Numbered from the stretch's first letter, positions 1,770 to 26,922 are shown. The stretch is 64,000 nucleotides of DNA from Candidatus Dormiibacterota bacterium (GCA_963709585.1 CAVPXI010000023.1:32001-96000), one strand, 5' to 3'. Notes: a model not told the origin generated them from the sequence alone. A program made the numbers and translations.

Positions 1770-2365
1770 GCGGCCAGGTGCTGGTCATCGACAACTACGA
1801 CTCGTTCACGTTCAATCTGGTGCAGTACCTGCGCGAGCTCGGCGCGACGGTTGCCGTCGTGCGCAACGACGCGCTTTCCGTCGCCGACATCGCGCGCTTG
1901 GATCCCGCGGCGATCGTGATGTCGCCGGGACCGCGAATCCCCGAGGAAGCGGGGATCTGCGTCGACCTCATCCGCGAGCTTGGGCTGACTGTGCCGATGC
2001 TCGGCGTGTGCCTCGGCCACCAGGCAATCGGCGTCGCCTATGGCGCCAGGGTTGTCCGCGCGCCTGCCGTGGTCCACGGTAAGGTCGGCGCGGTCCACCA
2101 TGCTGGCGCCGGCGTGCTCCGCGGTGTCGAGGATCCGTTCATGGCCACCCGCTACCACTCCCTCGTGGTCTCGACCACTGGGCTACCCGGCGTTCTCGAG
2201 GCGACGGCATGGAGCGACGACGGCCTGATCATGGCCATGCGCCACCGAGACTTTGCCGTCGAGGGTGTGCAGTTCCACCCCGAGTCGGTGGGCACACCGG
2301 CCGGTCGTGCGCTGCTGCGCAACTTCCTCGACACGGCGGGCATCGCCGTCGGAGTGGGCTCGTGA
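1754..2365 (+). CDS. trpG: Anthranilate synthase component II (glutamine amidotransferase)
   Basis: VIDNYDSFTFNL, SPGP, GVCLGHQ, RYHSL, GVQFHPES; AGGAGG RBS before GTG at 1754. Confidence 0.95.
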   Translation: MGSTLSGQVLVIDNYDSFTFNLVQYLRELGATVAVVRNDALSVADIARLDPAAIVMSPGPRIPEEAGICVDLIRELGLTVPMLGVCLGHQAIGVAYGARVVRAPAVVHGKVGAVHHAGAGVLRGVEDPFMATRYHSLVVSTTGLPGVLEATAWSDDGLIMAMRHRDFAVEGVQFHPESVGTPAGRALLRNFLDTAGIAVGVGS

Positions 2366-3158
2366 GTGCGGTGGAGGCGCGCTCAGCGCCATCGCGCGTC
2401 GCAAGCGCGCCGAGGTCGAGCAGCTCCGCTGCGTGGAGGCCACACTCTGGGCCAAGGCCGAATCGCTGCCTGCCGCGCGCGGCACGGCGGACGCGCTGCG
2501 CGGCGGCACGATCATCGCCGAGATCAAGCGCCGCTCACCGAGTGGCGGTGTCCTCCGTCCCGAGCTGGATCCAGCGGCGCTCGCGAGGGAATATGCCGCG
2601 TGCGGCGCTGCCGCCATCTCGGTGCTTACCGACGGACCCGACTTCGGGGGCTCGCTCGACGACCTCGCCCGGGTGCGCGCCGCGCTCGATATTCCGTTGC
2701 TGCGCAAGGATTTCACGCTCGATCCGGTGCAGATCGCCGAAGCCCGGGTGGCGGGCGCCGACTGGGTGCTCCTGATCGTCGCGCTGCTCGACACCGACAC
2801 CCTCGACCTCTGTCTCGCCGGTGTCGCTCGCAGCGGTGCGCACGCGATCGTCGAGGTGCACGACGTCGATGAGGCGCGCGTCGCCGTCGCCGCGGGAGCC
2901 GAGTGCGTCGGCATCAACAACCGCAACCTGAGCACGCTCGCCACCGACCTGGCGACCTTCGCCCGGGTACGTCACGCCATCCCGGAGGGCATCATCTGCA
3001 TCGCCGAGTCAGGGGTTCGCAGCCCGGCCGACGTCTTGCGCCTCGTCAACGAGGGAGCCGACGCGGTGCTCGTCGGCGAGGCGCTGATGCGCGCCCATTC
3101 CCCGGCGGACGCGTGCGCCGCGATGGTCGCCGCGGCGCACGACGCGATGCGCTCGTGA
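2362..3158 (+). CDS. trpC: Indole-3-glycerol phosphate synthase (start uncertain; probable indel near 5' end)
   Basis: IIAEIKRRSPS, ISVLTD, LRKDF, GINNRNL, AESG, LVGEALM. Confidence 0.93.
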
Positions 3159-3796
3159 TCGTCAAGGTGTGCGGCGTGCGCACGGCCGAGATCGCCGAGG
3201 CGGCGATTGACGCGGGCGCCGACTGGATCGGCTTGATGCTGGTGCCGAGGAGCGCGCGGTGGGTTGACGACGATGCGGCCCTGGCGGTGATGCGGGCGGT
3301 CGGCGGCCGCGCGGATCTGATCGGCGTCTTCGTCGAGCCCAGCGCCGCCGAGTGCGAGGACGCGGCAACTCGATACCGGCTCGCCGGCGTCCAGGTGCAC
3401 GGCGACTTCGACCGCACGCTGGTTATGACCTGCTCCGTTCCGGTCATTCCTGTCTTCAACGTGGAGGACCGGGTCGCGGCGACCACCATCGACTGGGCAC
3501 CGGACACGCTGGTGATGCTCGACGGAATGCCCGACAGGGGAGCGCTCCCCGGCGGCACCGGGCACCACGTCCCCATGGGCTGGGCCGCGGATGTCGCCCG
3601 CCACCGCGAGATCCTGCTCGCCGGGGAACTCGGTCCGGACGACGTCGCGCAGGCGATCGCCACCGTGCGTCCCGCCGGCGTGGATGCGTCGAGCCGGCTG
3701 GAGCGGCGTCCCGGAGAGAAGGATCCCGAGCTCGTCCGACGCTACGTGATCGCTGCTCGATCAGCCTCGGCGACGCTGGAGGTGGAGCCGCGATGA
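3155..3796 (+). CDS. trpF: Phosphoribosylanthranilate isomerase
   Basis: [29 protein letters not shown]. Confidence 0.92.
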
Positions 3797-4971
3797 GTGC
3801 GCAGACGCGCGGCCGCTTCGACGGGTATGGCGGCGCGTATGTGCCCGAGACCCTCGTGCCGGCCCTCGAGGAGCTCGACGCCGAGATGATCAGCGCCTTC
3901 GCCGACATAGCCTTCACCACCGACCTCGACCGCCGGCTCGCCGAGTTCGCCGGCCGTCCGACGCCGGTGACCCACGCCCGCCGCCTCAGCGCCGCGTCCG
4001 GGGGGGCCCAGATCTGGCTCAAGCGTGAGGACCTCCTCCACACCGGCGCGCACAAGCTGAACAATGCCCTCGGCCAGGTCCTGCTCGCCGAGCGCATGGG
4101 CAAGCGGCGGATCATCGCCGAGACGGGAGCGGGGCAGCACGGGGTTGCGACCGCGACGGCGTGCGCCGCGCTCGGCCTCGAGTGCGTTGTGTACATGGGT
4201 CGCGAGGACATGCGCCGCCAGGCGCTCAACGTCTACAAGATGGGCTTGCTCGGGGCCGAGGTCGTGCCCGTGGACAGCGGCTCGGCTACCCTCAAGGACG
4301 CCACCAACGAGGCGATCCGTGACTGGGTGGGACATGTTCGCGGCACCCATTACGTCATCGGCAGTGCCGTCGGACCGCATCCGTACCCGTCGCTGGTGCG
4401 ACGCCTGCAGCAGGTGATCGGCGACGAGGCGCGCGCGCAGATGCTCTCCCGTCTGGACCGTAAGCCTTCGGTGGTGGTGGCCTGCGTCGGCGGGGGAAGC
4501 AACGCCATCGGAATGTTCGCGGCGTTTCTCGACGACGACGTTCGCCTGATCGGTGTCGAGGCGGCGGGGCGTGGGCTCGACAGCGGCGAGCACGCGGCGC
4601 CACTCTCGCGAGGCCGTCCCGGCGTGCTCCACGGGTCGCTGAGCTACCTGATGCAGGATGACGCCGGACAGGTCCTCGCCACCCATTCGATCAGCGCCGG
4701 CCTCGACTATCCGGGGGTCGGCCCGGAGCACAGCGCGCTCCGCGACAGCGGGCGGGTCGACTATCTCACCGCCACCGACGCGGACGCCCTCGCCGCGTTC
4801 CATCAACTCTGCCTGCTCGAGGGCATCATCCCCGCCCTCGAGTCGTCGCACGCCCTGCATGTCGCCGCCAGGATCGCCGTCGATCGAGCTCCTGACGACG
4901 TGGTGCTCGTCTGCCTCAGCGGCCGCGGTGACAAGGATGTCGACACCGTGCGCGAGCACGACCCGGTATGA
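3793..4971 (+). CDS. trpB: Tryptophan synthase beta subunit
   Basis: [52 protein letters not shown]. Confidence 0.97.
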
Positions 4972-5786
4972 CCGCGGCACCGGTGACGCGGTTCACCGCC
5001 GCCTTCGCCGGCCGGACGGAGGATGCGCCCCCAGGGCTCATCCCTTATTTCAGCGCCGGATATCCGCATCTCGACAGCCTCGGAGCGCTGCTGCTGTGCG
5101 CGCAGCGCAGCGGCTGCATCGCGGCCGAGGTGGGGATCCCGTTCAGCGATCCGCTGGCGGACGGACCGACGATCCAGCGCACCGGTCACGTGGCTCTGAG
5201 CAACGGGATGACCGCGGCCACAGCGCTCGCGCAGGTGCGCGCTGCGCGTACAGCCGGCGTGAGCATCCCGCTCGCGGTGATGACCTATATCAACCCGGTG
5301 CTCAGTTTCGGCATCGTCGACTTCGCGAGAGTGGCGTCGGCGGCGGGGGTCGACGGCATCATCCTTCCCGACCTCCCGCTCGACGAGGCCGCGGGCGCCA
5401 GGGAGGCGATGCACACCACCGGCGTGGCGCTGATTCCGCTGGTCGCACCCACCACCACGGCGGATCGCCTGGCGCGCATCTGCGCGACCGCCGCGGGGTT
5501 TGTCTACTGCATCGGCGTGACTGGTGTCACCGGCGCGCGGCGCACGATCGCCGGCGACGCGATCTCGCTACTCGACGCGGTGCGCGAGCTGACACCACTG
5601 CCGCGAGCACTCGGCTTCGGACTCTCGACGCACGAGCACCTGACGGCGCTGCGCGGGCACGCTGAAGCGGCCGTGGTCGGGTCCGCGCTGCTCGACGCCA
5701 TCGGCCTCGATCCCGACATCGCGGTCGCCGCCGCCGGGCGATTCCTCACCGCCATGATCGGCACTCAGATGGCGCCGGCGGGGTGA
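4968..5786 (+). CDS. trpA: Tryptophan synthase alpha subunit
   Basis: [32 protein letters not shown]. Confidence 0.96.
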
Positions 5787-7087
5787 CCCATGAGCGCGTC
5801 TCTCCGGCAGCTCGGGTCGACGGCGACGTCGACGTTCCCGGTGACAAGTCAATCAGCCACCGCGCCCTGATCCTTGGTGCCCTGGCGAAGGGCCGGACGT
5901 ACATCGGCAACGCGTCGCCGGCGGCGGACGTCCTTGCGACCGCCGCCTGCCTGCGCGCCTGTGGCGCCTGGGTGCGTGACTTCCCACCGGATCGGTACGC
6001 GCTCGACGGGGCAGGCGCCGGCATCAGCCTGCGCAGCCCCGACGGCGTGCTCGACTGCGCCAACTCGGGGACCACCATGCGCCTGCTCACCGGCGCGCTC
6101 GCCGGGAGCGACTGCGACGCGACCCTCGACGGCGACGCGTCGTTGCGCCGGCGTCCGATGCTGCGCGTCGCCGAACCGCTGCGCGCCATGGGGGCGGGCA
6201 TCGACGCATCGCCGCAGGGGACCGCGCCACTCCGGGTACGGGGCAGGAGCAGGCTCGAGGGGGTGACCTGGCGGTCACCGGTGGCAAGCGCGCAGGTGAA
6301 ATCGGCCATCCTGCTCGCCGGGCTCTCGGCCGACCGGCCGACCACGGTCGTCGAACCGGTGCCGAGCCGGGACCACACCGAGCGGATGCTCGGCATGTGC
6401 GGGGTCGCGGTGGTGTCGAACGGGTCCGAGGTGACCGTCCATCCCGGACCCCTCGAACCCTTCGGGCTGCGCGTCCCGGGAGACCTCAGCTCCGCCGCGT
6501 TCTTCCTCGCGCTGGCGGCGTCCCGTCCCGGCTGGCGGATTCGCTGCCGACGGGTGGGCATCAACCCCGGTCGCACGGGCATCCTGGCGGTGCTCGAGGC
6601 GATGGGCGCGGCCATCCAGGTGGAGGAGGGGGAGCCGGCCGGCGGGGTCGAGCCGGTCGGCGACGTCGAGGTGCGCGGAGCCCACCTTCACGGGGTGACG
6701 ATCTCCGGCTCGCAGACTGTGCGGTCGATCGACGAGCTCCCGATCATCGCGGTGCTCGCGAGTCAGGCCGACGGCGACACCGTGATCCGCGACGCGGGCG
6801 AGCTTCGCAACAAGGAGACCGACCGCATCGCCGTGCTCGAGACCGGCCTCCGCCTGCTCGGTGTGCCCTGCGAGAGCAGCCCGGATGGACTCATCGTCCA
6901 CGGCCCAGTGCGGCTTCGCGGCGCCCATCTCGACGCGGCCGGTGACCACCGTTTGGCCATGGCATGGGCGATCGCGGCGGCGCTGGTGCCCGAGGGTGGC
7001 GGCGACACGGTCATCGAGGGGGCTGACGCGGCTGCAGTCTCCTACCCGAGCTTCTTCACCGACCTCGCGACGCTGTTGTCCTCCTGA
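5783..7087 (+). CDS. aroA: 3-phosphoshikimate 1-carboxyvinyltransferase
   Basis: PGDKSISHRA, NSGTTMRL, SAQVKSA, RDHTERML, KETDRI, GDHRLAM. Confidence 0.96.
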   Translation: MTHERVSPAARVDGDVDVPGDKSISHRALILGALAKGRTYIGNASPAADVLATAACLRACGAWVRDFPPDRYALDGAGAGISLRSPDGVLDCANSGTTMRLLTGALAGSDCDATLDGDASLRRRPMLRVAEPLRAMGAGIDASPQGTAPLRVRGRSRLEGVTWRSPVASAQVKSAILLAGLSADRPTTVVEPVPSRDHTERMLGMCGVAVVSNGSEVTVHPGPLEPFGLRVPGDLSSAAFFLALAASRPGWRIRCRRVGINPGRTGILAVLEAMGAAIQVEEGEPAGGVEPVGDVEVRGAHLHGVTISGSQTVRSIDELPIIAVLASQADGDTVIRDAGELRNKETDRIAVLETGLRLLGVPCESSPDGLIVHGPVRLRGAHLDAAGDHRLAMAWAIAAALVPEGGGDTVIEGADAAAVSYPSFFTDLATLLSS

Positions 7088-7091
7088 CCCG

Positions 7092-7565
7092 TCAGGGATC
7101 GAAGCTGAGCAGCAGGTGGGCGCTGTCGCGGGCCTCGACGACCTTGAGCCAGCGGACGGCGATGGTGACGGGGAGCACCTCCTGCCCCTCGACATACGCC
7201 TGGGCACCCGCGGCATGGTCGATCAGCCGGCGGACCACGTCCATGCGCAGCCCCGGATCCTCGACGACCGATGCGATGCCTCCACCCTGGATCCACCGTG
7301 AGGCATTGCCGGGTGAGCACATGAACGCGACCCGCGGATCCGCGGCGAGCTCGCGATGCAGGCGCGACCCGCCTCTGGTCGCGATCAGGAGGCGGATGCC
7401 GGTCGCGGTGCGCTCCGGCGCGAAGAAGACGCCGGCGACATGGGGACCCGCCCGACCTGTCGTGGCCAGCGCCATGGTGTCGTAGGCGCGCAGCGCCCAG
7501 AGCGCTCGCTCGAGCGCCAGCGGCGTCACCGCCCCGTCGCCATCGCGCTCTGCTTCGGATGTCAT
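7092..7565 (-). CDS. Pyridoxamine 5'-phosphate oxidase-like (split-barrel flavin-binding) protein
   Basis: TMALAT..GPHVAGVFF, S.LHRELAADPRVAF pattern; overlaps the fpg stop. Confidence 0.6.
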   Translation of the reverse strand: MTSEAERDGDGAVTPLALERALWALRAYDTMALATTGRAGPHVAGVFFAPERTATGIRLLIATRGGSRLHRELAADPRVAFMCSPGNASRWIQGGGIASVVEDPGLRMDVVRRLIDHAAGAQAYVEGQEVLPVTIAVRWLKVVEARDSAHLLLSFDP

Positions 7566-8419
7566 CGCAGCAGGCGGCTCAGACGCCGGTCCGCGAGGAC
7601 ACGTCCTCCCGTCTGGCACCGCGGGCAGTACTGAAATGAGCGGGACGCCAGCGAGACCTCGCGGACGGTCTCACCGCAGACCGGGCAGGGCAGCCCGGTG
7701 CGGCCGTGGACCTGCATCGACTGCCGCTTCCCATCCTTGAGCGACCCCGGATCCGAGTCGACGGCGAGCGCCACCGCCGCGGTCAACACGTCTCGAATCG
7801 CGGCCGCCAGGCGATCGAGCTCCTCGTCGCTGAGCGCGTCCGCATGCCGGAAGGGCGAGAGCTGCGCGGCGTGCAGGATCTCGTCGGAGTAGGCGTTCCC
7901 GATGCCGGCGATCACCGACTGGTCGGCGAGCACGCTCTTGAGCGTTCCCCGCTGATCGCGGAGCAGGCTGCCCAGCATCGGCGGCGACAAGCCCGGGTCG
8001 AGCGCATCGATCCCGAGTCGGGCCACCCCAGGGACGTCGCCGGGATCGCTGACGATCGAGACCGCAAGGCGCTTGTCCGTCCCGTGCTCGGTGATCTCGA
8101 GGCTGCCGCCGTCCTCGAGGGTCACGATCACCGCAAGCGGGCCCCGAAGCGATGGCCGCGCGTTGGTGGGTTTGTCACGAAGCCGGATCCATCCCCCACG
8201 GGCGAGATGCACGACCAGGTGCAGGGGTGGAACCGCGAAATCGAGGAACTTGCCCCGACGGACGCAGCCGCCGAAGACCAGGCCCTCGAGCGCGGTCGCC
8301 GGCGGGTCGAACGTCTTGAGCACCGCGACCGAGCGCACGGCGACACGCGACACCACACGTCCACGGAGCCGGGTGTCGAACGACCGGCACAGCGCTTCGA
8401 CCTCGGGCAATTCAGGCAT
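7562..8419 (-). CDS. Fpg/Nei family DNA glycosylase
   Basis: MPELPEVE start, GIGNAYSDEILH, C-terminal CPVC...CPRCQ zinc finger. Confidence 0.93.
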   Translation of the reverse strand: MPELPEVEALCRSFDTRLRGRVVSRVAVRSVAVLKTFDPPATALEGLVFGGCVRRGKFLDFAVPPLHLVVHLARGGWIRLRDKPTNARPSLRGPLAVIVTLEDGGSLEITEHGTDKRLAVSIVSDPGDVPGVARLGIDALDPGLSPPMLGSLLRDQRGTLKSVLADQSVIAGIGNAYSDEILHAAQLSPFRHADALSDEELDRLAAAIRDVLTAAVALAVDSDPGSLKDGKRQSMQVHGRTGLPCPVCGETVREVSLASRSFQYCPRCQTGGRVLADRRLSRLLR

Positions 8420-9527: not shown

Positions 9528-9815
9528 ATGACAACCACGGTTCGCGTTCCTGGACCGCTGCGCCGGCTTACCGGCGGCAACGCCGAGGTGATTGTCGAGG
9601 GCGACACCGTCGGTGCGGTGCTCACCAACCTCGAAGCCACCTATCCTGGCTTCCACGATCGTCTCTACGACGACTCCGGAAGCCTGCGGCAGTTCATCAA
9701 CATCTATGTCAATGACTCCGATATCCGCTTCGCCCAGGGCCTCGAAACCGCCATCGCCGAACGCGACGAGGTATCGATCGTCCCCGCCGTTGCCGGAGGT
9801 GGCGGTCGCCGCTGA
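9528..9815 (+). CDS. MoaD/ThiS/CysO-like ubiquitin-fold sulfur carrier
   Basis: VRVPGPLRRLTGG, FINIYVNDSDIRF, IVPAVAGG followed by extra GGRR. Confidence 0.88.
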   Translation: MTTTVRVPGPLRRLTGGNAEVIVEGDTVGAVLTNLEATYPGFHDRLYDDSGSLRQFINIYVNDSDIRFAQGLETAIAERDEVSIVPAVAGGGGRR

Positions 9816-10923
9816 CCGTCCGCTGGATCTCCTGCCGCGATCAGCGGTGATCGCCGTGGCAATGTCGGGCGGAGTGGACTCCAGCGTCGCTGCCGCTCGC
9901 GTTGCGGCCACGGGTCTGCGCGCGTTCGGCATCACCCTGGCGATGTGGCGGGGAGGGCAGGAGATCGTCCGCGATCGCGGATGCTGCTCGATCGACGCGG
10001 TGGATGACGCCAGGCGGGTCGCGACCGCGCTGGCGCTGCCTCACTACGTCTGGAACCTCGAGCAGGATTTCGAGGGAGAAGTTGTGCGTGACTTCGAAGC
10101 CGGATACGAGCGCGGCATCACCCCGAATCCATGCGTCCGGTGCAACCAGCGCATCAAATTCGGCGTCCTGCTCGAGCGCGCTCGAGCGGCGGGGGCGACG
10201 CACCTGGCGACCGGCCACTATGCACGCACCGGCCGGAGGGGCTCGCTGGCGACACTGCATCGAGCCCGTGATGCCCGCCGCGACCAGGCATACGTGCTTC
10301 ACCGCCTCGATCAGCGCCAGCTGCAGAGCGCCGTCTTCGCGCTCGGCGCCGACGCATCCAAGGCGGGCGTCCGCGCCGAGGCGGCAGCCCTCGGTCTGGG
10401 AACGGCCGCCAAGCCCGAGTCACAGGACCTGTGCTTCATCGACTCGAACATCAGGTCCGAGTTGCGGCTGCGGCTCGCCGGTCGGTTCGCGCCCGGCGCG
10501 ATCATCGAGTCCGACGGCACGGTACTCGGGCAGCACGAGGGCCTCCCGTTCTATACGGTGGGTCAGCGCGCCGGCCTGGGGATTCAACCTTCGCGTCCCG
10601 ACGCGGCGCCGCGCTATGTCATCGAGCTCCTGCACGATGCGAACGCCGTGGTCGTCGGCCCGCGCGAAGCGTTGCGTCGAAGCACCGTCGAGGCATCCTC
10701 GTTCACGTGGGTCGCGGGCTCGGCGCCGCCGTCGGATACCGAGTGCGAGGCGCAGCTTCGGGCCCACGGCGACCCACACAGGGCACGGATCGAGGCAGGC
10801 GACCAGGACGTCGTGCGCGTCCGGTTCGAGACCCCGGTCGACCAGGCGGCGCCGGGCCAATCGCTGGTGCTCTACCGCGGTGATGAGGTCCTCGGAGGCG
10901 GATTGATCCGCCGGGCCGCCTGA
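9799..10923 (+). CDS. mnmA: tRNA 2-thiouridine(34) synthase
   Basis: AMSGGVDSS, CC, TPNPCVRCN, ATGHYA, KPESQDLCF, YTVGQR, APGQ. Confidence 0.95.
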   Translation: MAVAADRPLDLLPRSAVIAVAMSGGVDSSVAAARVAATGLRAFGITLAMWRGGQEIVRDRGCCSIDAVDDARRVATALALPHYVWNLEQDFEGEVVRDFEAGYERGITPNPCVRCNQRIKFGVLLERARAAGATHLATGHYARTGRRGSLATLHRARDARRDQAYVLHRLDQRQLQSAVFALGADASKAGVRAEAAALGLGTAAKPESQDLCFIDSNIRSELRLRLAGRFAPGAIIESDGTVLGQHEGLPFYTVGQRAGLGIQPSRPDAAPRYVIELLHDANAVVVGPREALRRSTVEASSFTWVAGSAPPSDTECEAQLRAHGDPHRARIEAGDQDVVRVRFETPVDQAAPGQSLVLYRGDEVLGGGLIRRAA

Positions 10924-10935: not shown

Positions 10936-11349
10936 GTGCCCCCGACCCCGGAGCAGATCGTCATCGGCATCATCGCGGTGCTCGCCGGCTGTCTGGCGGT
11001 GACCAGCTCGGCGTACGCCGGGCGGCGAACCGGGAACTGGCTGTACTACGTCTGCACGGTCGGGAGTCTCGCGTTCGTCGCGGGTGTCGTCGGCCAGCGG
11101 GTGTTCCCGAGCCCTGCCGCGATCACCCGCCTTGGGCCGGTCGCGGCCACGGGCTCCTCGCCGGGGCCATGGGATGCGGGGGTGTCATTGCCGCTGATCG
11201 GCATCAGGGTGACGCCGGTCGCGATCGTCGGGCTCCTGATCGCGGCCATCGGCCTGAGCCTCGTGCTCCTCTTCGAGCGCATCCCCAGCACGGCCCGTGC
11301 AACCGTGCCGGGGCGGACATCGCGGCTTGACGACGACGATTCGGTCTGA
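10936..11349 (+). CDS. Hypothetical membrane protein
   Basis: ORF with about 3 hydrophobic segments, in operon context. Confidence 0.6.
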   Translation: MPPTPEQIVIGIIAVLAGCLAVTSSAYAGRRTGNWLYYVCTVGSLAFVAGVVGQRVFPSPAAITRLGPVAATGSSPGPWDAGVSLPLIGIRVTPVAIVGLLIAAIGLSLVLLFERIPSTARATVPGRTSRLDDDDSV

Positions 11350-11382: not shown

Positions 11383-11997
11383 ATGACCCCCAACGCAATC
11401 GCGTTCTACGCCGTCGCCGTGCTCATCGTGCTTGCCGCCGGGGCCGCAGTTGGGCTTCCTTCACTGCGCCATGCCGGGTACGCGGGCGCCGCTGTGATCG
11501 TGCTCCTGGCCGTGCTCGAGCTCATTTCCGGCGCCTACGCGCTGGCTGTGGTGCAACTCGTGGTGCCCGCCGTGGCGACTGCGATTGTCACCCTGGTGCT
11601 CCGGCGTGACGCCTACCGCGGTCTGGTCGTCGTACCCCATGCGCCTGAACGTCTCTGGATCGCCGGGCCGATCGCCATCGGCGTTGCGGTGGTGCTCATT
11701 GTCACCGTGGCGGTCGTCGGATCCGGTTGGTATCCCGGGTTCCAGGGGTATGCGAAGCTCGCCCCCACCGCCGCGCTGATCACCGTGCTCCATTACCGCG
11801 CGCCGTACGCGCTCGCCATCAGCGTTGTCCTGGTGATCGTCACCGCAGCCGCCGGACTTGTCATCGGCAGGCGCAGCGCGGACGAGCAGACGCTCGACCA
11901 GCGCATCCAGCAGCGCCGCGAGCGCGAAGAGCTGGCGCGCAGGCGCCGCGCGGACCGAGAGCAGGGGCGACGGCGTCCGGCGGAGAACGACTCGTGA
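11383..11997 (+). CDS. NuoJ-like membrane subunit (divergent)
   Basis: Five hydrophobic segments in NuoJ arrangement; first gene of a J-K-L-M-N-like run. Confidence 0.6.
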   Translation: MTPNAIAFYAVAVLIVLAAGAAVGLPSLRHAGYAGAAVIVLLAVLELISGAYALAVVQLVVPAVATAIVTLVLRRDAYRGLVVVPHAPERLWIAGPIAIGVAVVLIVTVAVVGSGWYPGFQGYAKLAPTAALITVLHYRAPYALAISVVLVIVTAAAGLVIGRRSADEQTLDQRIQQRREREELARRRRADREQGRRRPAENDS

Positions 11998-12308
11998 CCG
12001 TCGGTCCGGGAGCGTTCGTGGCGCTGAGCGCCGCCGTTTTCGCAATTGGGATCTACGGGGTGCTCGCGCGCCGCCATCCGCTAGGGGTTGCGATGGCGAT
12101 CGGACTCCTGTTCGCGGCACCGGTCATCGCCCTGGTCGGGTTCACCCACGCGATCAACGTCGGACCGCCTGCCTACGGCGACGCCTTGGCCGCCCTCGCC
12201 ATCGTTGTGGCGAGCTGCATCTGCAGCCTTGGCTTTGCTTTGATCGTGCTGCTCTGGCGCCGCACCGGGCGCGCGGACATCGACGCGCTCGGCGATCGCG
12301 AGGCATAG
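11994..12308 (+). CDS. NuoK-like subunit (divergent)
   Basis: LSAAVFAIGIYGVLARR N-terminus and 3 TM; conserved Glu residues absent. Confidence 0.75.
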   Translation: MTVGPGAFVALSAAVFAIGIYGVLARRHPLGVAMAIGLLFAAPVIALVGFTHAINVGPPAYGDALAALAIVVASCICSLGFALIVLLWRRTGRADIDALGDREA

Positions 12309-12313
12309 CGGCG

Positions 12314-14345
12314 TTGACCATCTACTACGCGGCGTGGGCGATCCCCTTCCTGCCGTTGCTCGGCGCGCTCGCCTCGCTTGGGGCGGAAAGCCAGCGGCGG
12401 GCCGCGCAGCTGTGCGTCGCGTTCAGCGGTCTGTCGTTCGTCGTCGCGGCGATCGTGCTCGGCGTCCGCCTGACTCACGCGCCGGCCGCGCCATTCGAAC
12501 TCGCTGTTGACATTCTTCGCGATGAACCCACCGGAGGGCGCGGTCTTCGCAACCCAGTTCCAGGCACAGGTCGGGATCCACGTCGACGCGCTCTCGGCAA
12601 GCTTCGCGGCGGCCATCGCGTTCGCGACGCTGGTCATCCAGACATATGCCGTCAACGCGATGCGCGGCGCGCAAGGGTTCCGGCGGTTCTTCTGCGCGTC
12701 GTCGGTGCTCGGCTTCTGCACCACCGGCTTCGTGCTCAGCCCCAATCTCTTCGACTCGCTGATCCTGTGGGTGGGGGCGTCGGCGAGCCTCTACGTCCTG
12801 CTCTCATTGTCGTGGCAATATGCGGACGCGGCGCGTCGCGCGATGCGCGCGATGGTGATCCTCACCGCGAGCGACATCGCGCTCACCCTCGGCGTGGTCT
12901 TCACGTGGATCAAGTTCGGTGTCTTTTCGTCGCTGCTGCCCGCGCCTCCCGGACAGACGATCGCGGATCCCTTTTCGTTCAACGTCATCTCGCAGGGAGT
13001 GATCGCGACCCTGCATCACGGCGTGGCGAGCACCGGCCCGCGCGCGATCCTGGTCATGGGTATCGTGTTCCTGGTCGCCGCCGCCGTCCGCAGCGTGCAG
13101 TTTCCGTTCACCGTCTGGCTCACCGACGCCGCATCGTCCGCAATCCCGGTGCTCGCGCTCGCCGCGGCCACGGTCGCGCCGCTCGGGCTTTACCTCGTGG
13201 CGCGGATCTACCCGGTGGTCGCCCACGCTCCGCGAGCGCTTCCCGTCCTGGCGTTGGTCGGCGGCGTGAGCGCGGCGATCAGCGCCGCGACCGGGATCGC
13301 GCAGCGGAGCATCGCGAGAATCGCCGTGTGCGCCGTCGCCTCGGAGCTGGGGCTCGGACTCGTCGCCCTGGGGATGGGCGGATACAGCCCCGGCGTGTTC
13401 ATCGCGTTCACCTCCGTGTTCACCTCGACGCTCCTGCTCCTTGCAGTTGGCAACCTGGTGCGCGCCTATCGCACAGACGACATCAGCGAGATGGGCGGCG
13501 CGTGGGCGAAGTTGCGCACCACCAGCATCGCGCTCGTCGTTTGGGCGCTGCTCGCGGGCGGAATCGGCCTGAGCGCCTATTACGCGCTGTCGTCCGCGCT
13601 CAACGGCATCGACCCTGCCGGGGGAGTCTTCAGTGGGAGCGAGCGCGCGGTCGTGACCATCGTCACCGTCATCGCCGCGGCGCTCGTGGCGTTGCTCGCC
13701 GGTCGTCTCCTGCTCACCGTGACCTCCGGAGCGGTGACACGCCGGCGAGGATTCCAGCACGATCGGATTGCCGAGGTCGAGAACGCGTTACGCCGTCCCC
13801 TCTGGATCGCGATCGTCGCCGCAGTGGTCGCGGTGCTCATCGGGTTGCCGGGACTGCAGCCCTTCCACCTCGGCGGCGCGCGGGTCGCCGGCCTGACCTT
13901 CATGCGATTCGTGTACTACGGAAGTCATCCACAGGCGATCGGGCCTGATGGGTTGGCAGCACTCATCGCGCTGCTCAGCCTGGCGGGCGGTTTCGGCGCG
14001 GCGTATGTCGGGTTCGGTCCGGCGCGAAGAGCTGCGGCGCTTGCGGCCGGCGCTGCGCGACCCCTGCGCGTGGCCGAGCAGGGCTACTACATCGAGCGTC
14101 TCACCGAACTGGCCGCGGAGCCGCTGCTCGCGATCGCCGGGAGCGTGTCGAGCTTCGATGCGCAGGTGATCGCCCCGATCGCAGCCTCGGTGGGGGAGAG
14201 TGTCGATGACGACGCCACGCTGCTTGGAGCGTTCCGCAACGCTCGATTCGCGCGCTACCTCGCCGGCAGCCTGGTGGTCGTCACGATTCTCGCGGTGCTG
14301 TCGGTGCTCGCCGCGACCGGACATCTCTGGGTCCACCTGACATGA
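12314..14345 (+). CDS. NuoL-like antiporter subunit (frameshift near 12500; divergent)
   Basis: WAIPFLPLLGA, VDALS, RRFF, SVQFPFTVWL, DISEMGG. Confidence 0.8.
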
Positions 14346-15832
14346 GCGTCATCCTCTCGACGATCGTCTGGTCGCCGCTGTTCTTCGCGCTCATCGCTCT
14401 CTTCCTTCCCGAGCGCGATGACGACGAGCGCGCCCGGGTGCGGACGGTCGCGCTCGCGGGCGCGGGAGTGAGCTTCTTCGTGACCACATTCTTCGCCATC
14501 CTGGGGCAGATCACACTGGGCACCGGGGGCGGTCTCGCGTCGGCCTACCAGGAGAACCACACGTGGTTCGGGAACTTCCTCTTCCAGGCGCACTACGACC
14601 TCGTCGCGGACGGCATCACCCTTCCGCTGCTCGTGGTGGTGACCACCGTCTTCGCCTGCGCGATGTTCCACTCATGGAAGATCCACGAACGCGTCCGACT
14701 GTACGTGATCCTCGTGCTGCTGCTCGAGACCGCCGTCAACGGGGTGCTGTGTTCCTCGGACTTCGTTTTGTTCGTGTTCTTCTGGGGCCTGCTGCTGGTC
14801 CCGATGTACCTGCTCATCCGTATCTGGGGCGGCGACGGTGCGCGCCGGGCCGCCGCATGGTTCGCGGGATTTCACGCGGTGTCACTCGGGTTGATCATCG
14901 CAACCGTCGCGATCATCGTCGTGGAGGCGGGTGCTGGGTCCTCGGATATGAGCGCCGCCCAGACGAGCTTCCCGGTTACCGCTGAGACGGTCGGATTCTG
15001 GTTGAGCTTCGCCGGCTTCGCGATCGCGATGGCCATCTTCCCCGTGCACACCTGGATGCTCGAGGCGCAAAGCAAGGCGAGCGCCGGTGTCGCGACGATT
15101 CTTTCCGGGACGACGTTGCTGCTCGGCGCCTACGGGATGATGCGCATCAGCCTCGTCGTCTTCCCGACCGCGGCGCACTATTACTCATTCGCGATCACCG
15201 GGCTCGCTGTCGTGGGCGCGTTCTGGGGCTGCATCGGCGCCCTCCGCCAGGACGAGTTGCGCCGGTTCATCGGGTACATGAACGTTGCGCAGATGTCGCT
15301 CGTCCTGCTCGCCATCGGCGCGCAGACCTCGGTCGCGCTCGTCGGGGCAGTTCTGCTGCTCGCCGGGCAGGCATTCGCATCAGCGATGCTCACCCTGGTC
15401 AGCGGCGCGATCGAGGAGCGCACCCGGACCACGAGCATTCGCGCCATGGGCGGGCTCGTCACGCAGGCACCGCGACTCGCGGGTTTCTGGCTCGTCGCAG
15501 CGGCGAGCGTGATCGGGGTGCCGTTGCTCGCCGGATTCACCGGCGACTTCATGGTGTTCGCGGGCTCATTCCCCGGGCATCGGATTGCCACGGTGCTGGT
15601 GATGGCGAGCGTGATCGTGACCACCGGCGGTCTCCTGTGGGTCGCCAATCGCGTCTTCTTCGGACCCGTCCGCGACCAGTTCGCACGGGTGCGTGACGTC
15701 ACCCTCCTGGATCTGACCGTGCTCATCCCCCTGGTTGCCGCCGTGTTGCTGTTCGGCGTGCGGGCGGGGGCGGTCGTCCCGGTGATCGCCAACGGAGTGC
15801 TCGAGATCACCACGCGGATCGCCGGAGGCTAG
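14342..15832 (+). CDS. NuoM-like antiporter subunit (divergent)
   Basis: DGITLPL, PMYLLIRIWGG, FPVHTW, ERTRT..MGGL, P.LAGFTGDF. Confidence 0.82.
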   Translation: MSVILSTIVWSPLFFALIALFLPERDDDERARVRTVALAGAGVSFFVTTFFAILGQITLGTGGGLASAYQENHTWFGNFLFQAHYDLVADGITLPLLVVVTTVFACAMFHSWKIHERVRLYVILVLLLETAVNGVLCSSDFVLFVFFWGLLLVPMYLLIRIWGGDGARRAAAWFAGFHAVSLGLIIATVAIIVVEAGAGSSDMSAAQTSFPVTAETVGFWLSFAGFAIAMAIFPVHTWMLEAQSKASAGVATILSGTTLLLGAYGMMRISLVVFPTAAHYYSFAITGLAVVGAFWGCIGALRQDELRRFIGYMNVAQMSLVLLAIGAQTSVALVGAVLLLAGQAFASAMLTLVSGAIEERTRTTSIRAMGGLVTQAPRLAGFWLVAAASVIGVPLLAGFTGDFMVFAGSFPGHRIATVLVMASVIVTTGGLLWVANRVFFGPVRDQFARVRDVTLLDLTVLIPLVAAVLLFGVRAGAVVPVIANGVLEITTRIAGG

Positions 15833-15835
15833 GCG

Positions 15836-17323
15836 ATGACCGTGAATTTCGCGCACGCGATGACGCTGGCGCTGCTCCCCGAGGCGATGCTCGTCGGCAC
15901 GGCACTGCTCTCCGTGCTGGTTGCGGTGGTGCGGCCCGGACTCCGCCCCGATATCCATCGCTGGATGGCGTGCATCGGCCTCGCCGGGTCGCTCGCGGCG
16001 TGCGGGTTGGTGCTGCTCGGCCTCCGCAACATGCGCTCCGGGATCGCGATCACGGTCTGGAACGGCGGCTTCGTCGTCGACAGCTTTGCGCTCTTCATCG
16101 CGATCCTCGCGTGCGTGACCGCGCTCTGCACCTGCCTCATCAGCGATGCGGCCGTGCGCACTATCCCGACACGGACGAGCGCCTACTACGCGCTCATTCT
16201 CGTCTCGACAGCTGGAGCAGAGGCGATCGCCGCAGAACGTGAGATGACCACGTTCTTCGTCGCCCTCGCCGTCGTGCTTGTCTGCCTGGTCGCCCTCGGT
16301 GCGCTCGTCAAGACCAACCCGCGTGGAGCCGTCTCCTCGTTCGAGCACCTCATCGAAGGAGGCGTCGGCATCGCCACCGTGCTGTACGGGCTCGTGCTCC
16401 TCTACGGAACCACCCGGAGCACCAACCTCGCCGCGGTCGCCGCCGCCGCTCGCGCGGCTCCCGGGGCGGTCGCGCTCGGCGTGGCGCTGGTAATGCTCGG
16501 TCTCTGCGCCACGTTCGGCGTCTTCCCCCTGCGGCAGTGGGTGGGGCGCGTTGCCTTCAGCGTTCCCGCGGGCACGGCCGGGTTCATCCTGGCGATGAGC
16601 ATGATCGCTGGTGCGGGCGCGCTGGCACGCGTGACCGTCTCGGGCTTGGGTCCGGGTGTCGGGGTCTGGCGATGGCTTGTCCCCATCGTCGCGGCGGTCG
16701 CGCTCGGCGTCGCCTCACTGAGCTCACTGCGCGAGACCACGATCTCGCGCCTGATCGGCCAGCTGGTCAGTGCCCAGGCGGCGATGCTGCTGCTCGGGCT
16801 GCTCGCGTTCACGACCGGGTCGCGAGGTCTGCCCGCGTACGGGATGACCGCATTCCTCGGCGGTCTCGGTATCGCCGCGATCGCAACCGTGGCCGCGTTC
16901 GGGGTGCTCGCGATGCTCCAGGTGGCCGGGATCGGCGATGCCATCGGCGACCTTCGCGGGCTGGCCCACCGTTCCGCGCCGGCGGCGCTGCTCCTCACCG
17001 TCGCGCTGACAACCCTCGCCGGGGTACCGCCGCTCGCGGGCTTTCTCTCGCGCGTGCTGCTCATCTCGAGCGCGGCCGACACCCACTACGGCTGGCTGGC
17101 GATCGTCGCCGTCGGCGCGACCCTGCTGACGATGATCGCCGCGCTGCGGGTTGTGGCCACGCTGTACGCGGATGCCGGCGACGAGGTCCCGTTCACGCTC
17201 GGAGCCACGCCGGTGGTGTCTCGGGTCGTCGCCGGCGCGGCCTGTCTCGCCGGTGTCGGCCTGGTGGTGCTGATCCAGCCGCTGCTCGCGGTGGCGACGG
17301 CGGGAGCCGGAACACTGCGCTGA
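15836..17323 (+). CDS. NuoN-like antiporter subunit (divergent)
   Basis: LLPE, LYGLVLLYGTT.STNL, DLRGLAHRS, LAGVPPLAGF. Confidence 0.8.
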   Translation: MTVNFAHAMTLALLPEAMLVGTALLSVLVAVVRPGLRPDIHRWMACIGLAGSLAACGLVLLGLRNMRSGIAITVWNGGFVVDSFALFIAILACVTALCTCLISDAAVRTIPTRTSAYYALILVSTAGAEAIAAEREMTTFFVALAVVLVCLVALGALVKTNPRGAVSSFEHLIEGGVGIATVLYGLVLLYGTTRSTNLAAVAAAARAAPGAVALGVALVMLGLCATFGVFPLRQWVGRVAFSVPAGTAGFILAMSMIAGAGALARVTVSGLGPGVGVWRWLVPIVAAVALGVASLSSLRETTISRLIGQLVSAQAAMLLLGLLAFTTGSRGLPAYGMTAFLGGLGIAAIATVAAFGVLAMLQVAGIGDAIGDLRGLAHRSAPAALLLTVALTTLAGVPPLAGFLSRVLLISSAADTHYGWLAIVAVGATLLTMIAALRVVATLYADAGDEVPFTLGATPVVSRVVAGAACLAGVGLVVLIQPLLAVATAGAGTLR

Positions 17324-17358: not shown

Positions 17359-18186
17359 ATGCCCGCCGTTGCGCTGGGCGTGATCACCACGGTCGTGCGC
17401 GTGCTCGGCCCCGCTCGCGGCATCGCCGCGGCTGCGGTGGGATCGACCTGGTACGCGCGCCTCAGCCGCGACGAGCGCGTCCGCGCCGCGGCGAATCACC
17501 ACCGCCTTCAGCCGCACCTCGACCACGCGGCGGCCGCGACACTGGCGCGGCGTTCGTACCAGGAGTACGTGCGCATGATCGTCGACTCGATGTGGGCAGA
17601 GCCGCTGGAGTTGGCCAAGGTGCTGAAGTTGTTTCGCGTGATCGGCGCCGAGCACCTCAACGTCGGCGAGCGCGGATCCATGGTCGTGCTCCCGCACTTC
17701 GGCAACTGGGACATGGCCGCGAGCGCCTCGCTCGGTCTCGGCCTGCACCTGAGCACGGTGATGGCACCGGTGGTGTCGCCGGGGATCACCGAGATGGTCG
17801 CGCTCTCGCGGCAGCGCAAGGGGCTCGAGATCTTCACGGTGCGGCAGTCCGCCCGGGGGCTGTTCCGCGCGTTGCGTCGGGGCAGGACGGTCGCGCTGAT
17901 GCTCGACGTTCCGGAGGCGGGTCCCACCGTCGTGGTGCCGTTCTGCGGCGGACCGGTGGCCTGCAGCGCTGTCCCGGCGCGTCTGGCTGCGGCCACCGGT
18001 GCGCCGATCCTCCCGGTCACGTGCCGGCGCGAAGGCCGGGGATGGGTGCTCGAGATCCACCCGCCGGTCGAGACGTCAGGGGACGATGCGGCGGTGATCG
18101 GAAGGATCGCGGCGCGCGTCGAGCCTGCCATTCGTGCCCATCCCGAGCAGTGGTATCCCTTTCACCACGTGTATGCGGATCGCTGA
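17359..18186 (+). CDS. Lysophospholipid/phosphatidylinositol-mannoside acyltransferase (LpxL-like family)
   Basis: PHFGNWD (HX4D), PARLAAATGAPI, IRAHPEQW. Confidence 0.85.
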   Translation: MPAVALGVITTVVRVLGPARGIAAAAVGSTWYARLSRDERVRAAANHHRLQPHLDHAAAATLARRSYQEYVRMIVDSMWAEPLELAKVLKLFRVIGAEHLNVGERGSMVVLPHFGNWDMAASASLGLGLHLSTVMAPVVSPGITEMVALSRQRKGLEIFTVRQSARGLFRALRRGRTVALMLDVPEAGPTVVVPFCGGPVACSAVPARLAAATGAPILPVTCRREGRGWVLEIHPPVETSGDDAAVIGRIAARVEPAIRAHPEQWYPFHHVYADR

Positions 18187-19315
18187 GCGCGACGAGCTGA
18201 CCGTGGCGGCGCGGGCGCTGCAGGTGGCCGCGGGCGCCGGGTCTGTGATGGCGACTGCCTGGGCTCCGGGGCGCTGCACGCTCGCCGGCGAGCACGTTGA
18301 CTATGCGGGCGGCCTGGTGCTCTGCCTGGCGGTCGATCTGGGGATTGCGGCGGCGGTCCGCCCGAGCGCGACGACGCGGTACCTGGCGACCAGCGGCGGC
18401 CTGACCGTCACGCGTTCCGAGGCCGAACCCGTGGGAGACATCGGAGATCGGGTGCTTGCCCCGGTGGTCGTGCTGCGCAGGCGGGGGCTCTCCGTTCCGG
18501 CGGTCGAAGTCGGTATCGCGGCGACCCTTCCGGCCGGAGCGGGCCTCGCCTCGTCTGCCGCGCTCATCGTCGCCACCACCACCGCGCTGCTGCGGATGAC
18601 GGCGATGACGATGACGGCGCGGGATCTCGCCGCGGTTGCGCTGTCCGCCGAGCGCGATGTCCTTGACATTCCCTGCGGCCCGCTCGACCAGCGAGCGATC
18701 GTCGACGCACCCGACGGCGGTGCGTTGCTCCTCGACTGCGCCACCGGCGCCGAGACGTCCGTGCAATGGCCCTGGGCCGACGCAGTCCTCGTGGGCTGCG
18801 ACACCGGGACGCATCACGACGTGGGCGGCGCAGAGTACCGGCGCCGCCGCGAGGAGACCGAGTCAGGGCTCGCGGCGCTGCATGTCGCGAGCTGTCAGGA
18901 GTTGAGCGCACCGGCCCTCGAGACGTCGGACCTCGACCCTGTGGTCAAACGGCGCCTCCGGCACGTGATGGAGGAGAGCGTGCGCGCCGCCCAGGCGGCC
19001 GCGGCACTGCGACGGGCCGATCTCGAGGCGCTTGGACACCTGATGTCGGCAAGCCATCGATCGCTCCGTGACCTGCACGAGGTGAGCACGCCCGCGCTCG
19101 ATGCGGTGGTCGCCGCGGCTGAGGCCGTGCCCGGCTGCGCCGGGGCCCGCCTGGTCGGCGCCGGCTTCGGCGGTGCCGTGGTGGCGCTGGTCACGAGACA
19201 CGCGGCCGGCGCCTGCCGAGAGGCGATGGCTGACGCGTGCGGCGGAGGGTCGACGTTCGAGCTCCGGCCTTCACCCGGGGTCGCGATTCTCGCCCCCGAC
19301 GTGGTGCAGGGCTAG
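18173..19315 (+). CDS. galK: Galactokinase (GHMP kinase)
   Basis: APGRCTLAGEHVDY, PAGAGLASSAA, CGPLDQ, GARLVGAGFGG. Confidence 0.85.
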   Translation: MRIAERDELTVAARALQVAAGAGSVMATAWAPGRCTLAGEHVDYAGGLVLCLAVDLGIAAAVRPSATTRYLATSGGLTVTRSEAEPVGDIGDRVLAPVVVLRRRGLSVPAVEVGIAATLPAGAGLASSAALIVATTTALLRMTAMTMTARDLAAVALSAERDVLDIPCGPLDQRAIVDAPDGGALLLDCATGAETSVQWPWADAVLVGCDTGTHHDVGGAEYRRRREETESGLAALHVASCQELSAPALETSDLDPVVKRRLRHVMEESVRAAQAAAALRRADLEALGHLMSASHRSLRDLHEVSTPALDAVVAAAEAVPGCAGARLVGAGFGGAVVALVTRHAAGACREAMADACGGGSTFELRPSPGVAILAPDVVQG

Positions 19316-19327: not shown

Positions 19328-19954
19328 ATGGCTGGCAACGCGGCGACCGCGGCAGGCTGCGCCGCCGGGTATCTGATCGGGTCGGTGCCGTTCGGCCTGA
19401 TCGTCGGAAGGGCTGCGGGCGGCCTCGACGTTCGTGATTTCGGCAGCGGCAACATGGGAACGGCCAACGTGCTGCGCACCGTCGGCGCCAGAGCGGGGGC
19501 GGTCACCTTCGCGCTTGACGTCGCCAAGGGCGCGGCCGCGGTCGGGCTGGCGCGACGCCTTGGCGCCGACCCCGCCGCGCAGGCCGCGGCCGGGCTTGCC
19601 TCGTGTGTCGGGCATTCATGGCCGGTCTTCGCTCGGTTTCGCGGCGGCAAGGCGGTTGCGACGGCGTTCGGCGGGTTGCTCATGGTGTCGCCCGAGGCGG
19701 CGGCCTGGGCCACCTTTGGCGGAATCGGTGCGCTCGCCCTGAGCCGCACCATGTCGGTCGGGTCGCTGACCGCCGCGGGGACGGCAACGCTGGGGGCCGG
19801 CCTCGACAGCCGCCGCCGCCGCGACGCGGTGCCGTTCGTCTTCACTGCGCTGGCGTCGACGCTCGTGATCGTCCGTCACGCGCCGAACATCCGGCGGATC
19901 GCTCGTGGCGAGGAACCGCAGTTGTCGGCCCGTCTGTGGGGCGGTCGTCACTGA
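19328..19954 (+). CDS. plsY: Glycerol-3-phosphate acyltransferase
   Basis: GYLIGSVPFG, GSGNMGTANVLR, DVAKG, GHSWP.F.RFRGGKAVAT, RHAPNI.R. Confidence 0.93.
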   Translation: MAGNAATAAGCAAGYLIGSVPFGLIVGRAAGGLDVRDFGSGNMGTANVLRTVGARAGAVTFALDVAKGAAAVGLARRLGADPAAQAAAGLASCVGHSWPVFARFRGGKAVATAFGGLLMVSPEAAAWATFGGIGALALSRTMSVGSLTAAGTATLGAGLDSRRRRDAVPFVFTALASTLVIVRHAPNIRRIARGEEPQLSARLWGGRH

Positions 19955-21255: not shown

Positions 21256-21529
21256 GTGGTCGCGCTAGGCGGGGCGTTAGCGGTGCCCTGTACCCGCAAT
21301 CCGCTATAGCGGGGCTGAATTCCCCACCGAGGGGGCGCGTCATTGGGTCTGCTCCGGACGCGCCGGCGTTGACGACTGGGTCCCGCGCAGCTCGGGCCCG
21401 TGAACCCCGTCAGGTCCGGAAGGAAGCAGCGGTAAGCGGTTCCCCGGGGGTGCCGTGGGGAAACCTGGTCTGAGCCGGTCGTACGGGTGAGCGCTGGTGG
21501 CGTGCCGACGACGTGGGGTGCGCGACTAC
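21256..21529 (+). ncRNA. ffs: Signal recognition particle RNA, large (Alu-domain) bacterial type
   Basis: Conserved S-domain GTCAGGTCCGGAAGGAAGCAGC, Alu-like 5' part, terminal stem GTGGTCGCGC/GCGCGACTAC; upstream of dnaX. Confidence 0.92.
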
Positions 21530-26003: not shown

Positions 26004-26493
26004 TCGTGGGTTGCCCGCTCGGGGGTGCTCCCGACGGCCGCGTTGCCAGGGATCCATCGTGGACTTGGCGCGCCATGAACCTTGACACTTGAAGAGTGGA
26101 GACGACTTTCCGCGACGGCCTTGGGTCTCGTGCGATCGAGCACGGACCGGCGTAGGCCTCGTCAAAGCATGTCTACGACCCGGGTTTACCGGGACACAGA
26201 CGTATTCATGGAGAGTTTGATCCTGGCTCAGGATTAACGCTGGCGGCGTGCATGAAACATGCAAGTCGAGCGCGGTGTGATGAGGGGTAACCCAATTCAC
26301 ATCTAGCGGCGAACGGGTGAGTAACACGTGAGCAACCTACCTTCGAGTTGGGGATAGCCCTGGGAAACCAGGATTAATACCCGATGTGGTCACAACAGGA
26401 CATCCTGATGTGAGTAAAGGCGTAAGCCGCTCGATGACGGGCTCGCGGCCTATTAGCTTGTTGGTGGGGTAACGGCCTACCAAGGCGATGATG

Positions 26494-26567
<74 letters not shown>

Positions 26568-26689
26568 TAGGAATTTTCCGCAATGGGCGAAAGCCTGACG
26601 GAGCAACGCCGCGTGAGTGATGAAGACCTTCGGGTTGTAAAGCTCTGTCGGAGGGGAAGAACACAATGACGGTACCCTCCAAGAAAGCC

Positions 26690-26728
<39 letters not shown>

Positions 26729-26885
26729 GGGCGAGCGTTATCCGGATTTACTGGGCGTAAAGCGCGTTAAGGCGGCCGACAAAGTTGGTGGTGAAATTTC
26801 AGGGCTCAACTCTGAAACTGCCTCCAATACTAGTCGGCTTGAGTGCGAGAGAGGAAGGTGGAATTCCCGGTGTAGTAGTGAAATG

Positions 26886-26922
<37 letters not shown>

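Follow-up and report, generated by a model that had tools for sequence, protein, structure and literature searches.

The buried Glu/Lys/His axis of the antiporter-like subunits of complex I is held to be their working part and is assumed to matter for their stability. Redox-independent assemblies of NuoL/M/N- and NuoK-like subunits are known as the Mrp (Mnh/Pha) antiporters, which keep this charged relay. A membrane-arm-only "partial nuo operon" of the order nuoA-hypothetical-nuoHJKLMN, a second nuo set without peripheral-arm genes beside a complete operon, has been described in marine actinomycetes (PMC6676996). NdhF3 of the cyanobacterial NDH-1MS complex is described as an antiporter-like subunit from which the charged residues have been lost and which is regarded as non-pumping (bioRxiv 10.64898/2026.08.03.742399). 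Here we describe a nuoJKLMN-like module at positions 11383-17323 of a 64,000-nucleotide stretch of DNA from a Candidatus Dormiibacterota bacterium (GCA_963709585.1 CAVPXI010000023.1:32001-96000; hereafter the window, with positions counted from its first letter). A full-text literature search found no description of such a J-K-L-M-N module in Dormibacteria, and the module appears novel relative to known partial nuo operons in that it lacks nuoA and nuoH and has lost its relay residues.

We compared the module with each of these systems. Among the 80 actinomycete loci fetched, five were examined (two from Streptomyces and one each from Lentzea, Brachybacterium and Mycobacterium gastri; L096, L112, L118, L158 and L166). 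All five contain nuoA and nuoH and keep nearly all relay residues (D/K/K/H/H/E in NuoM, E/E in NuoK and E/D/K/H/H/K in NuoL), whereas the window has neither these genes nor these residues, and the actinomycete NuoM proteins are about 30% identical to the NuoM-like protein of the window. Within the actinomycete sets, the Glu position of transmembrane helix 5 (TM5) is Leu in NuoN and Asp in NuoM, Gln stands at NuoL H334 in three of the five loci, and Glu stands at NuoN K217 in one. The module differs from Mrp, besides lacking the relay, in that the Nuo models of NCBIfam outscore the Mrp models for the L-, M-, N- and K-like proteins, and in that the window has a NuoJ homologue and the J-K-L-M-N order with no MrpB, E, F or G genes; an open reading frame (ORF) scan of the locus found no further small membrane gene except up137, described below. 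NdhF3 is one subunit within a redox-active complex containing CupA, whereas the module comprises five subunits with no redox module, and neither CupA nor DabA was found. The locus is also not a complete complex I of either 14 or 11 subunits, as no Q-module or NuoH/NuoA genes are adjacent. A further counterpart is an 11-subunit operon, nuoA-B-C-D-H-I-J-K-L-M-N, which occurs in relatives of the window's genome and in other bacteria. It shares the locus and the J-K-L-M-N order, and its M and N genes are the nearest in trees; the intact operons keep nuoA, B, C, D, H and I as well as the relay residues, which the window module has lost.

Homology and fold of the five subunits

The five genes lie on the + strand of the window, whose G+C content is about 70% and which the names of near-identical database proteins assign to Candidatus Dormibacteraeota/Dormibacteria. 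The nuoJ-like gene (11383..11997) encodes 204 amino acids with five predicted transmembrane helices and an Arg/Glu-rich C-terminal helix. It is followed by the nuoK-like gene (11994..12308; 104 amino acids), the nuoL-like gene (12314..14345; 676 amino acids after removal of a spurious extra base at 12498), the nuoM-like gene (14342..15832; 496 amino acids), which is the best conserved of the five, and the nuoN-like gene (15836..17323; 495 amino acids). The GTG start of K overlaps the stop of J at 11994, the ATG of M overlaps the stop of L at 14342, and elsewhere in the module neighbouring genes are separated by 3-5 nucleotides. Gene order, gene lengths and coupling are intact, as the original prediction, made from the sequence of the window alone, had stated.

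Profile searches identify the five genes as homologues of nuoJ, K, L, M and N. PF00361 was detected in the L-, M- and N-like proteins (63.6, 140.6 and 68.4 bits, respectively, against a cut-off of 21.5), PF00662 was additionally found in the L-like protein, and PF00420 in the K-like protein (48.5 bits). The scores of the NCBIfam equivalog models all fall below their cut-offs (J, 20.4/192; K, 54.4/57; L, 175.7/556; M, 256.9/585; N, 147.8/523), the sole NCBIfam pass being the subfamily model TIGR01972 for the M-like protein (306.7 against 263.8). Database entries for the module proteins carry ordinary names such as "NADH-quinone oxidoreductase subunit M". The K-like protein aligns to the solved Nqo11, NdhE and NuoK chains, and the NCBIfam NuoL model, aligned from position 69 to position 611 of its 615, reaches the end of the L-like protein, consistent with retention of the lateral helix and the last transmembrane helix (TM16).

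Among the antiporter-like subunits L, M and N, the fold was tested on the M-like protein. This protein matches NuoM chains in the PDB (E = 9.7e-52), and its AlphaFold2 model, built from a 22-row alignment, has a predicted local distance difference test score (pLDDT) of 87 and a predicted template modelling score of 0.89. The discontinuities of TM7 and TM12 are present in the model as helix breaks at 230-237 and 391-397, and Foldseek superposed it on Paracoccus denitrificans NuoM (8qby_M) with a TM-score of 0.94 and a root-mean-square deviation of 2.0 Å. The J-like protein gave no Pfam match, and a PDB profile search yielded nothing better than E = 2.4. Its homology to canonical NuoJ was detected only in a profile-profile comparison: hhalign of the 36-sequence J-like family against nine canonical NuoJ sequences gave a probability of 99.4% (E = 5.8e-21), spanning all five helices, and the J-like protein is therefore judged to be a real but very diverged NuoJ. 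A search of 1.84 billion proteins with the J-like profile brought up no more than 58 cluster representatives.

As deposited, the nuoL-like gene is split by a 1-nucleotide insertion at 12498, with the first 62 codons in a different frame from the remaining 612. The extra A at about 12498 is missing from eight aligned relatives. Because both parts lie in one frame in 20 of 20 fetched relatives and the base is absent from the contigs of four of four public runs, the frameshift is an assembly error; one of these runs holds near-identical DNA (a 2,996-nucleotide contig with 6 differences). These public-run data come from contigs, so that uncovered bins are not evidence and expression levels cannot be read from them. 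Frame breaks in relatives affect 4 of 100 module gene copies; for the two flanking genes, acyltransferase and galK, the figure is 7 of 37. The breaks look like assembly indels rather than decay. The canonical nuoL gene elsewhere in the same genome (contig C14; L065 about 5585-5786) is also apparently frameshifted in the deposited assembly.

Replacement of the relay residues under purifying selection

Residues were mapped by HMMER alignment to solved complex I chains (P. denitrificans, Escherichia coli, Thermus thermophilus, cyanobacterial and Mycobacterium smegmatis) and by MAFFT alignment with relatives and with the canonical subunits encoded in the same genome. Numbering for NuoM comes from a count along the E. 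coli chain; the labels for the other subunits are what we take to be the E. coli numbers, placed by motif. The canonical Glu, Lys, His or Tyr is replaced at 23 of the 24 relay or E-channel positions checked, the sole canonical residue being the TM6 Asp of NuoL (D123); the Asp of the NuoL "LxD" motif (D207) is also kept. Three of the changes are conservative (NuoL K229 to Arg, NuoN K395 to Arg and NuoM E407 to Asp). The relay formed by the TM5 Glu, TM7 Lys, TM8 Lys/His and TM12 Lys/Glu is replaced in L, M and N alike.

In the NuoM-like protein, all six axis residues are changed (E144 to G149, K234 to A229, K265 to L260, H322 to Q317, H348 to Q343 and E407 to D402), as are all six in the NuoN-like protein (E133 to Ala, K158 to Glu, K217 to Thr, H224 to Arg, K247 to Ile and K395 to Arg). 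The NuoL-like protein has Val at the TM5 position E144, Arg at K229 (within "VRSVQ"), a deletion or Ala at H254, and Ile, Ser and Ser at H334, H338 and K342, respectively. Both E-channel Glu residues are gone from the NuoK-like protein (E36 to Gly and E72 to Ile), although its PF00420 domain is present, and the NuoJ-like protein has Pro62 in place of Tyr59 and Ala143 in place of the Glu of the TM5 "PFE" motif. The losses that the original prediction had listed by eye for NuoK, L, M and N all hold in both sets of alignments. As a positive control, the genome's own canonical NuoK, M and N keep all relay residues in the same alignments.

The 23 positions are replaced throughout the genus as well. 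In a wider NuoM family alignment of 93 rows (85 database matches, the window and seven loci), the TM5 Glu is present in one row and Lys at K234 in two, and H322 is Gln in 85; K265 is Lys in 23 rows and Arg in 27, and E407 is Glu in 38 and Asp in 34.

Among 24 other genomes of the genus, 22 carry the NuoM-like gene at 79-91% identity, and the two genomes without it are 79% and 86% complete. We estimated dN/dS by the pairwise Nei-Gojobori method within the genus, using 12-21 sequences per gene (median dS 0.8-0.95) and dropping rows with split matches or matches below 90%. The ratios were 0.25 for J, 0.18 for K, 0.17-0.18 for L, 0.10 for M and 0.16 for N, and 0.17 for the upstream gene up137. As controls, the acyltransferase gave 0.11, galK 0.22 and canonical nuoM, from 17 genomes, 0.083. 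The module is under strong purifying selection, similar to that on its flanking genes and on canonical nuoM. The ratios of the five genes show no neutral decay across orthologues and, with the presence in 22 of 24 genomes and the retained fold, bear out the original view of a conserved module rather than random decay. The arm is under selection and cannot use the canonical relay.

Origin, spread and surroundings of the module

The genome carries a complete 14-gene operon, nuoA-B-C-D-E-F-G-H-I-J-K-L-M-N, on contig C14, as the original prediction had left to be looked for. A contig search for PF00361 gave 244, 229 and 227 bits for the three C14 copies versus 143, 70 and 63 for those in the window. 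In the NuoL of the 14-gene operon, Ala or Ser stands at the TM5 Glu ("GWALV" or "GWSMV" versus "GWE") in six of six Dormibacteria genomes (C14 NuoL, L065 5585-7288, and L085-L089), with an Asp 9-10 residues upstream of the position in four of the six and a Glu in one; the NuoL of the 11-gene operons keeps the TM5 Glu. The 14-gene-operon NuoL may have relocated a charge within a working complex I.

The module is the surviving half of a second, nuoABCDHIJKLMN operon from which nuoA, B, C, D, H and I were lost, because it shares the locus running from mnmA to acyltransferase-galK-plsY with intact operons and because of the placement of its M and N genes in trees. In G123, a genome of another genus in the window's family (f1), the locus reads ThiS-like, mnmA, up137 homologue, NDH-2-like, nuoA-B-C-D-H-I-J-K-L-M-N, acyltransferase, galK and plsY, the NDH-2-like gene (L082 2981-4438) separating the up137 homologue from nuoA. 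In G150, from family f5, ThiS-like and mnmA precede the 11 nuo genes, and plsY lies further downstream. Every relay residue is canonical in both of these operons. Each of G123 and G150 encodes NuoH twice, together with two full L/M/N sets; in the window's own genome (G000), G159, G044 (f1) and G037 (f2), NuoH is single, and the canonical set is joined by a low-scoring one. The window M and N group with second-operon genes in quick maximum-likelihood trees (support of 97 and 99, respectively, in the Shimodaira-Hasegawa-like approximate likelihood ratio test), and the 14-gene-operon genes form their own clade in both trees. The description of the module as "stand-alone" accordingly stands in part: no nuoA-I genes adjoin it in an ORF and Pfam scan of the window, and the genome's only NuoH is on C14, but synteny marks it as a leftover of an 11-gene operon and not as an independently arisen unit.

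The spread of the second operon was surveyed in 121 genomes of the class with a hidden Markov model of the second-operon NuoM clade, which separated score classes of at least 390 and at most 330 bits; this census and the genus tallies include genomes flagged as unpublished, which contributed no sequence, and the census is subject to the incompleteness of metagenome-assembled genomes. The clade was detected in 75 of the 121 genomes: the window's own, 25 of 27 in f1, 10 of 10 in f2, 29 of 36 in f3 (plus 3 truncated matches), 10 of 11 in f5 (plus 1 truncated match) and 0 of 36 in f4. A second complex-I-type NuoH (336-352 bits) is found only in G123 and 10 f5 genomes, 11 of the 75, and therefore the other 64 sampled genomes hold arm genes without a matching NuoH.

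The loss of residues is graded between families. The two f3 modules read (L053 = G168, 13-8016; L054 = G057) consist of mnmA, a small membrane ORF and J-K-L-M-N with no nuoA-I. They keep E133 and K395 of NuoN, H254, H338 and K342 of NuoL, and E72 of NuoK; at NuoN K217, one module has Lys and the second has Arg, and Glu has become Gln at, for example, NuoK E36 and NuoM E144 and E407. The f3 module is a possible intermediate stage. In the two modules read from other f1 genera, NuoK E72 is kept, as is NuoL E144 in one, and in the window's genus and f2 essentially all relay residues are lost. The charge-free genes of f1 and f2 form one clade in the M and N trees (support of 100 and 99), beside the intact genes of G123, and an approximately unbiased test weakly rejected the alternative of f1 charge-free genes with G123 (p = 0.03), a grouping named after the tree had been seen. 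The trees have long branches and are exposed to long-branch attraction, and trees of the 14-gene operon conflict with them by placing f2 outside f1. One to three origins of the charge-free state are possible on these data.

The module lies within a same-strand array of a ThiS-like ORF, mnmA, up137, the five nuo-like genes, an acyltransferase gene, galK and plsY, and a promoter and terminator scan of the locus found nothing above shuffled sequences. The flanks are outside the module. Upstream, the mnmA-like gene for a tRNA 2-thiouridylase (9592..10923, +; given as an open frame, with the true start further in) serves as the synteny anchor, its homologues preceding nuoA in the intact operons of G123 and G150 and preceding the module at the loci of f3 and f2. 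Downstream, NCBIfam and Pfam identify the genes that had been listed in the original prediction, the acyltransferase now specified as PatA/LpxL-like (17359..18186, +), galK (18134..19315, +) and plsY (19328..19954, +). Because the same neighbours flank the intact 11-gene operon in relatives, their linkage to the module is inherited synteny, and they are therefore not evidence of a lipid-related function. Such a function was considered and rejected: the neighbours pre-date the degeneration and differ in f2, where polyprenyl synthase is upstream (which lends no support either) and DeoC downstream.

The gene up137 (10936..11349, +) encodes a 137-amino-acid membrane protein with three transmembrane helices, 34 nucleotides upstream of the nuoJ-like gene, and its membership in the module is uncertain. 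It belongs to no Pfam or NCBIfam family, its 304 homologues are all named "hypothetical", a PDB profile search gave only a chance-level match, and a protein atlas returned only leads scoring below 0.9. All 20 loci of the genus have an orthologue next to the module, as do two other genera. We rejected up137 as a NuoA remnant because G123 carries an up137 homologue and nuoA together.

Elsewhere in the window, a large bacterial signal recognition particle RNA at 21260-21525 (182.5 bits), between a sensor-kinase-like ORF and dnaX, is ordinary. Group I introns are uncommon in bacterial rRNA genes, and the rRNA operon at 26205-33711 contains two matches to them. One lies within the 23S gene (31936-32155, 66.7 bits), where the 23S match covers 4241 nucleotides against a 2925-nucleotide model, and the other (27662-28444, 55.4 bits) overlaps the 3′ end of the 16S match and the start of the spacer.

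Possible roles of the charge-free arm

The module is probably a selected, non-pumping, stand-alone J-K-L-M-N arm complex that persists as a relic of the second operon. An ancestral 11-subunit complex-I-like operon of Dormibacteria, without the NADH module nuoEFG, lay between mnmA and acyltransferase-galK-plsY. Deletion of nuoA, B, C, D, H and I in the window's lineage left an arm without a quinone or redox module of its own, after which residues that are small, hydrophobic or non-titrating took the place of the buried Glu/Lys/His relay and the E-channel carboxylates. The proteins retain their fold with both broken helices and the lateral helix of NuoL, their genes are still coupled in translation, and purifying selection on them is strong. 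The five proteins may still assemble like the complex I membrane arm; proton translocation by the canonical mechanism would be impossible, and selection would maintain the arm as a stand-alone membrane complex whose role is independent of redox chemistry. We favour a stand-alone complex because the genome has no NuoH or NuoA of the module's own lineage, because the docking side, J, is the most diverged, and because a canonical complex I and an NDH-2-like enzyme are present. The gene for the latter (contig C17:6158-7411) is 56% identical to that of G123.

The likeliest role for such a complex would be structural or that of a scaffold. The original prediction had suggested, as possibilities, a scaffold, an uncoupled alternative arm or a repurposed transporter. 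Several points weigh against the preferred interpretation. Scaffolding is a default, and nothing found indicates what is scaffolded. The AlphaFold2 model of the J-like protein is poor (pLDDT 56) and of low confidence. The stretch around NuoL K399, where the residue appears as Asn, aligns poorly. Polar or charged residues are kept or new in the former axis (D123, R195 and D207 in L; E170, H171, R233 and R406 in N; D402 in M), and these leftover or new charges could form another pathway. The sole hint of expression is one metatranscriptomic library, which may hold DNA, in which contigs 92-99% alike cover parts of J to N; these contigs do not show transcription.

More tentatively, the redox-less five-subunit arm may have been converted, in at least two Dormibacteria families, into a charge-free "pseudo-pump" with a new selected function. 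It might conduct a gas, quinone or lipid within the membrane, or organise the respiratory membrane. In that case, the series from intact (f5, G123) through partly charged (f3) to charge-free (f1, f2) would record the route of conversion.

It is unlikely that the charge-free J-N block instead replaces canonical J-N on the 14-gene peripheral arm with its NuoH and NuoA, a hybrid that would be an uncoupled NADH:quinone oxidoreductase suited to high proton-motive back-pressure. A full 14-gene operon does occur in every module-bearing genome examined, the module supplies exactly the exchangeable block J to N, and cyanobacteria do exchange distal antiporter-like subunits (bioRxiv 10.64898/2026.08.03.742399). 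However, the J-like protein, on which docking to NuoH/NuoA would depend, has diverged furthest, with no Pfam match and with Tyr59 and the TM5 Glu lost; the module's source operon differs from the 14-gene operon, and an NDH-2-like enzyme for uncoupled NADH oxidation is already present.

Repurposing as a conduit, in which the hydrophobic arm conducts a non-ionic species such as gas, quinone or lipid within the membrane, seems comparably doubtful. Dormibacteria have been described as trace-gas oxidisers, and the replacing residues are mostly Gly, Ala, Val, Leu, Ile, Ser, Thr and Gln. A precedent is NdhF3, in which conserved charged residues are missing and for which a CO2 conduit has been proposed (bioRxiv 10.64898/2026.08.03.742399). 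Against this, the genome, which is 88.8% complete, yielded no CupA/ChpXY or DabA partner (PF10216 and PF10070 were not found), the NdhF3 model TIGR01960 scored 69.2 bits, lower than the NuoL models and far short of its cut-off of 588.7, and the lipid-gene neighbours are inherited synteny.

The prospect that the module still translocates ions through relocated or substituted Arg, Asp or Glu residues, like an Mrp-type antiporter without a redox module, is slimmer still. Mrp antiporters are redox-free relatives, as PDB matches indicate, the NuoH-less f3 modules keep many relay residues, actinobacterial membrane-arm-only operons keep nearly all of them, and in the window K229 and K395 are now Arg and E407 is Asp. 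Arg is, however, a poor proton carrier, and no subunit in the window's genus or in f2 retains a titratable Lys, His or Glu at the TM5, TM7, TM8 and TM12 positions, with both NuoK Glu residues gone. Finally, it is very improbable that the genes are pseudogenes decaying after the deletion and not yet erased, since the frame break in the deposited nuoL-like gene, the breaks in some relatives and the long stem branches in the trees are outweighed by the run contigs, all four of which lack the nuoL frameshift, by dN/dS of 0.10-0.25 over a dS of about 0.8-0.9, by open frames in 96 of 100 gene copies of relatives and by retention of the module across three families.

The preferred reading, a selected non-pumping arm, has consequences beyond this genome. 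The charged axis has been removed from five arm subunits, yet purifying selection on them is about as strong as on a working NuoM, so that the module offers a natural "dead arm" control for studies of complex I mechanism and folding. The graded series between families offers a setting in which to ask which residues go first after redox drive is lost. In metabolic reconstructions, the module genes would be counted as a second complex I, a warning for annotation. In an abundant, uncultured soil lineage, the module is a candidate case of a very common protein architecture serving a new, non-pumping function.

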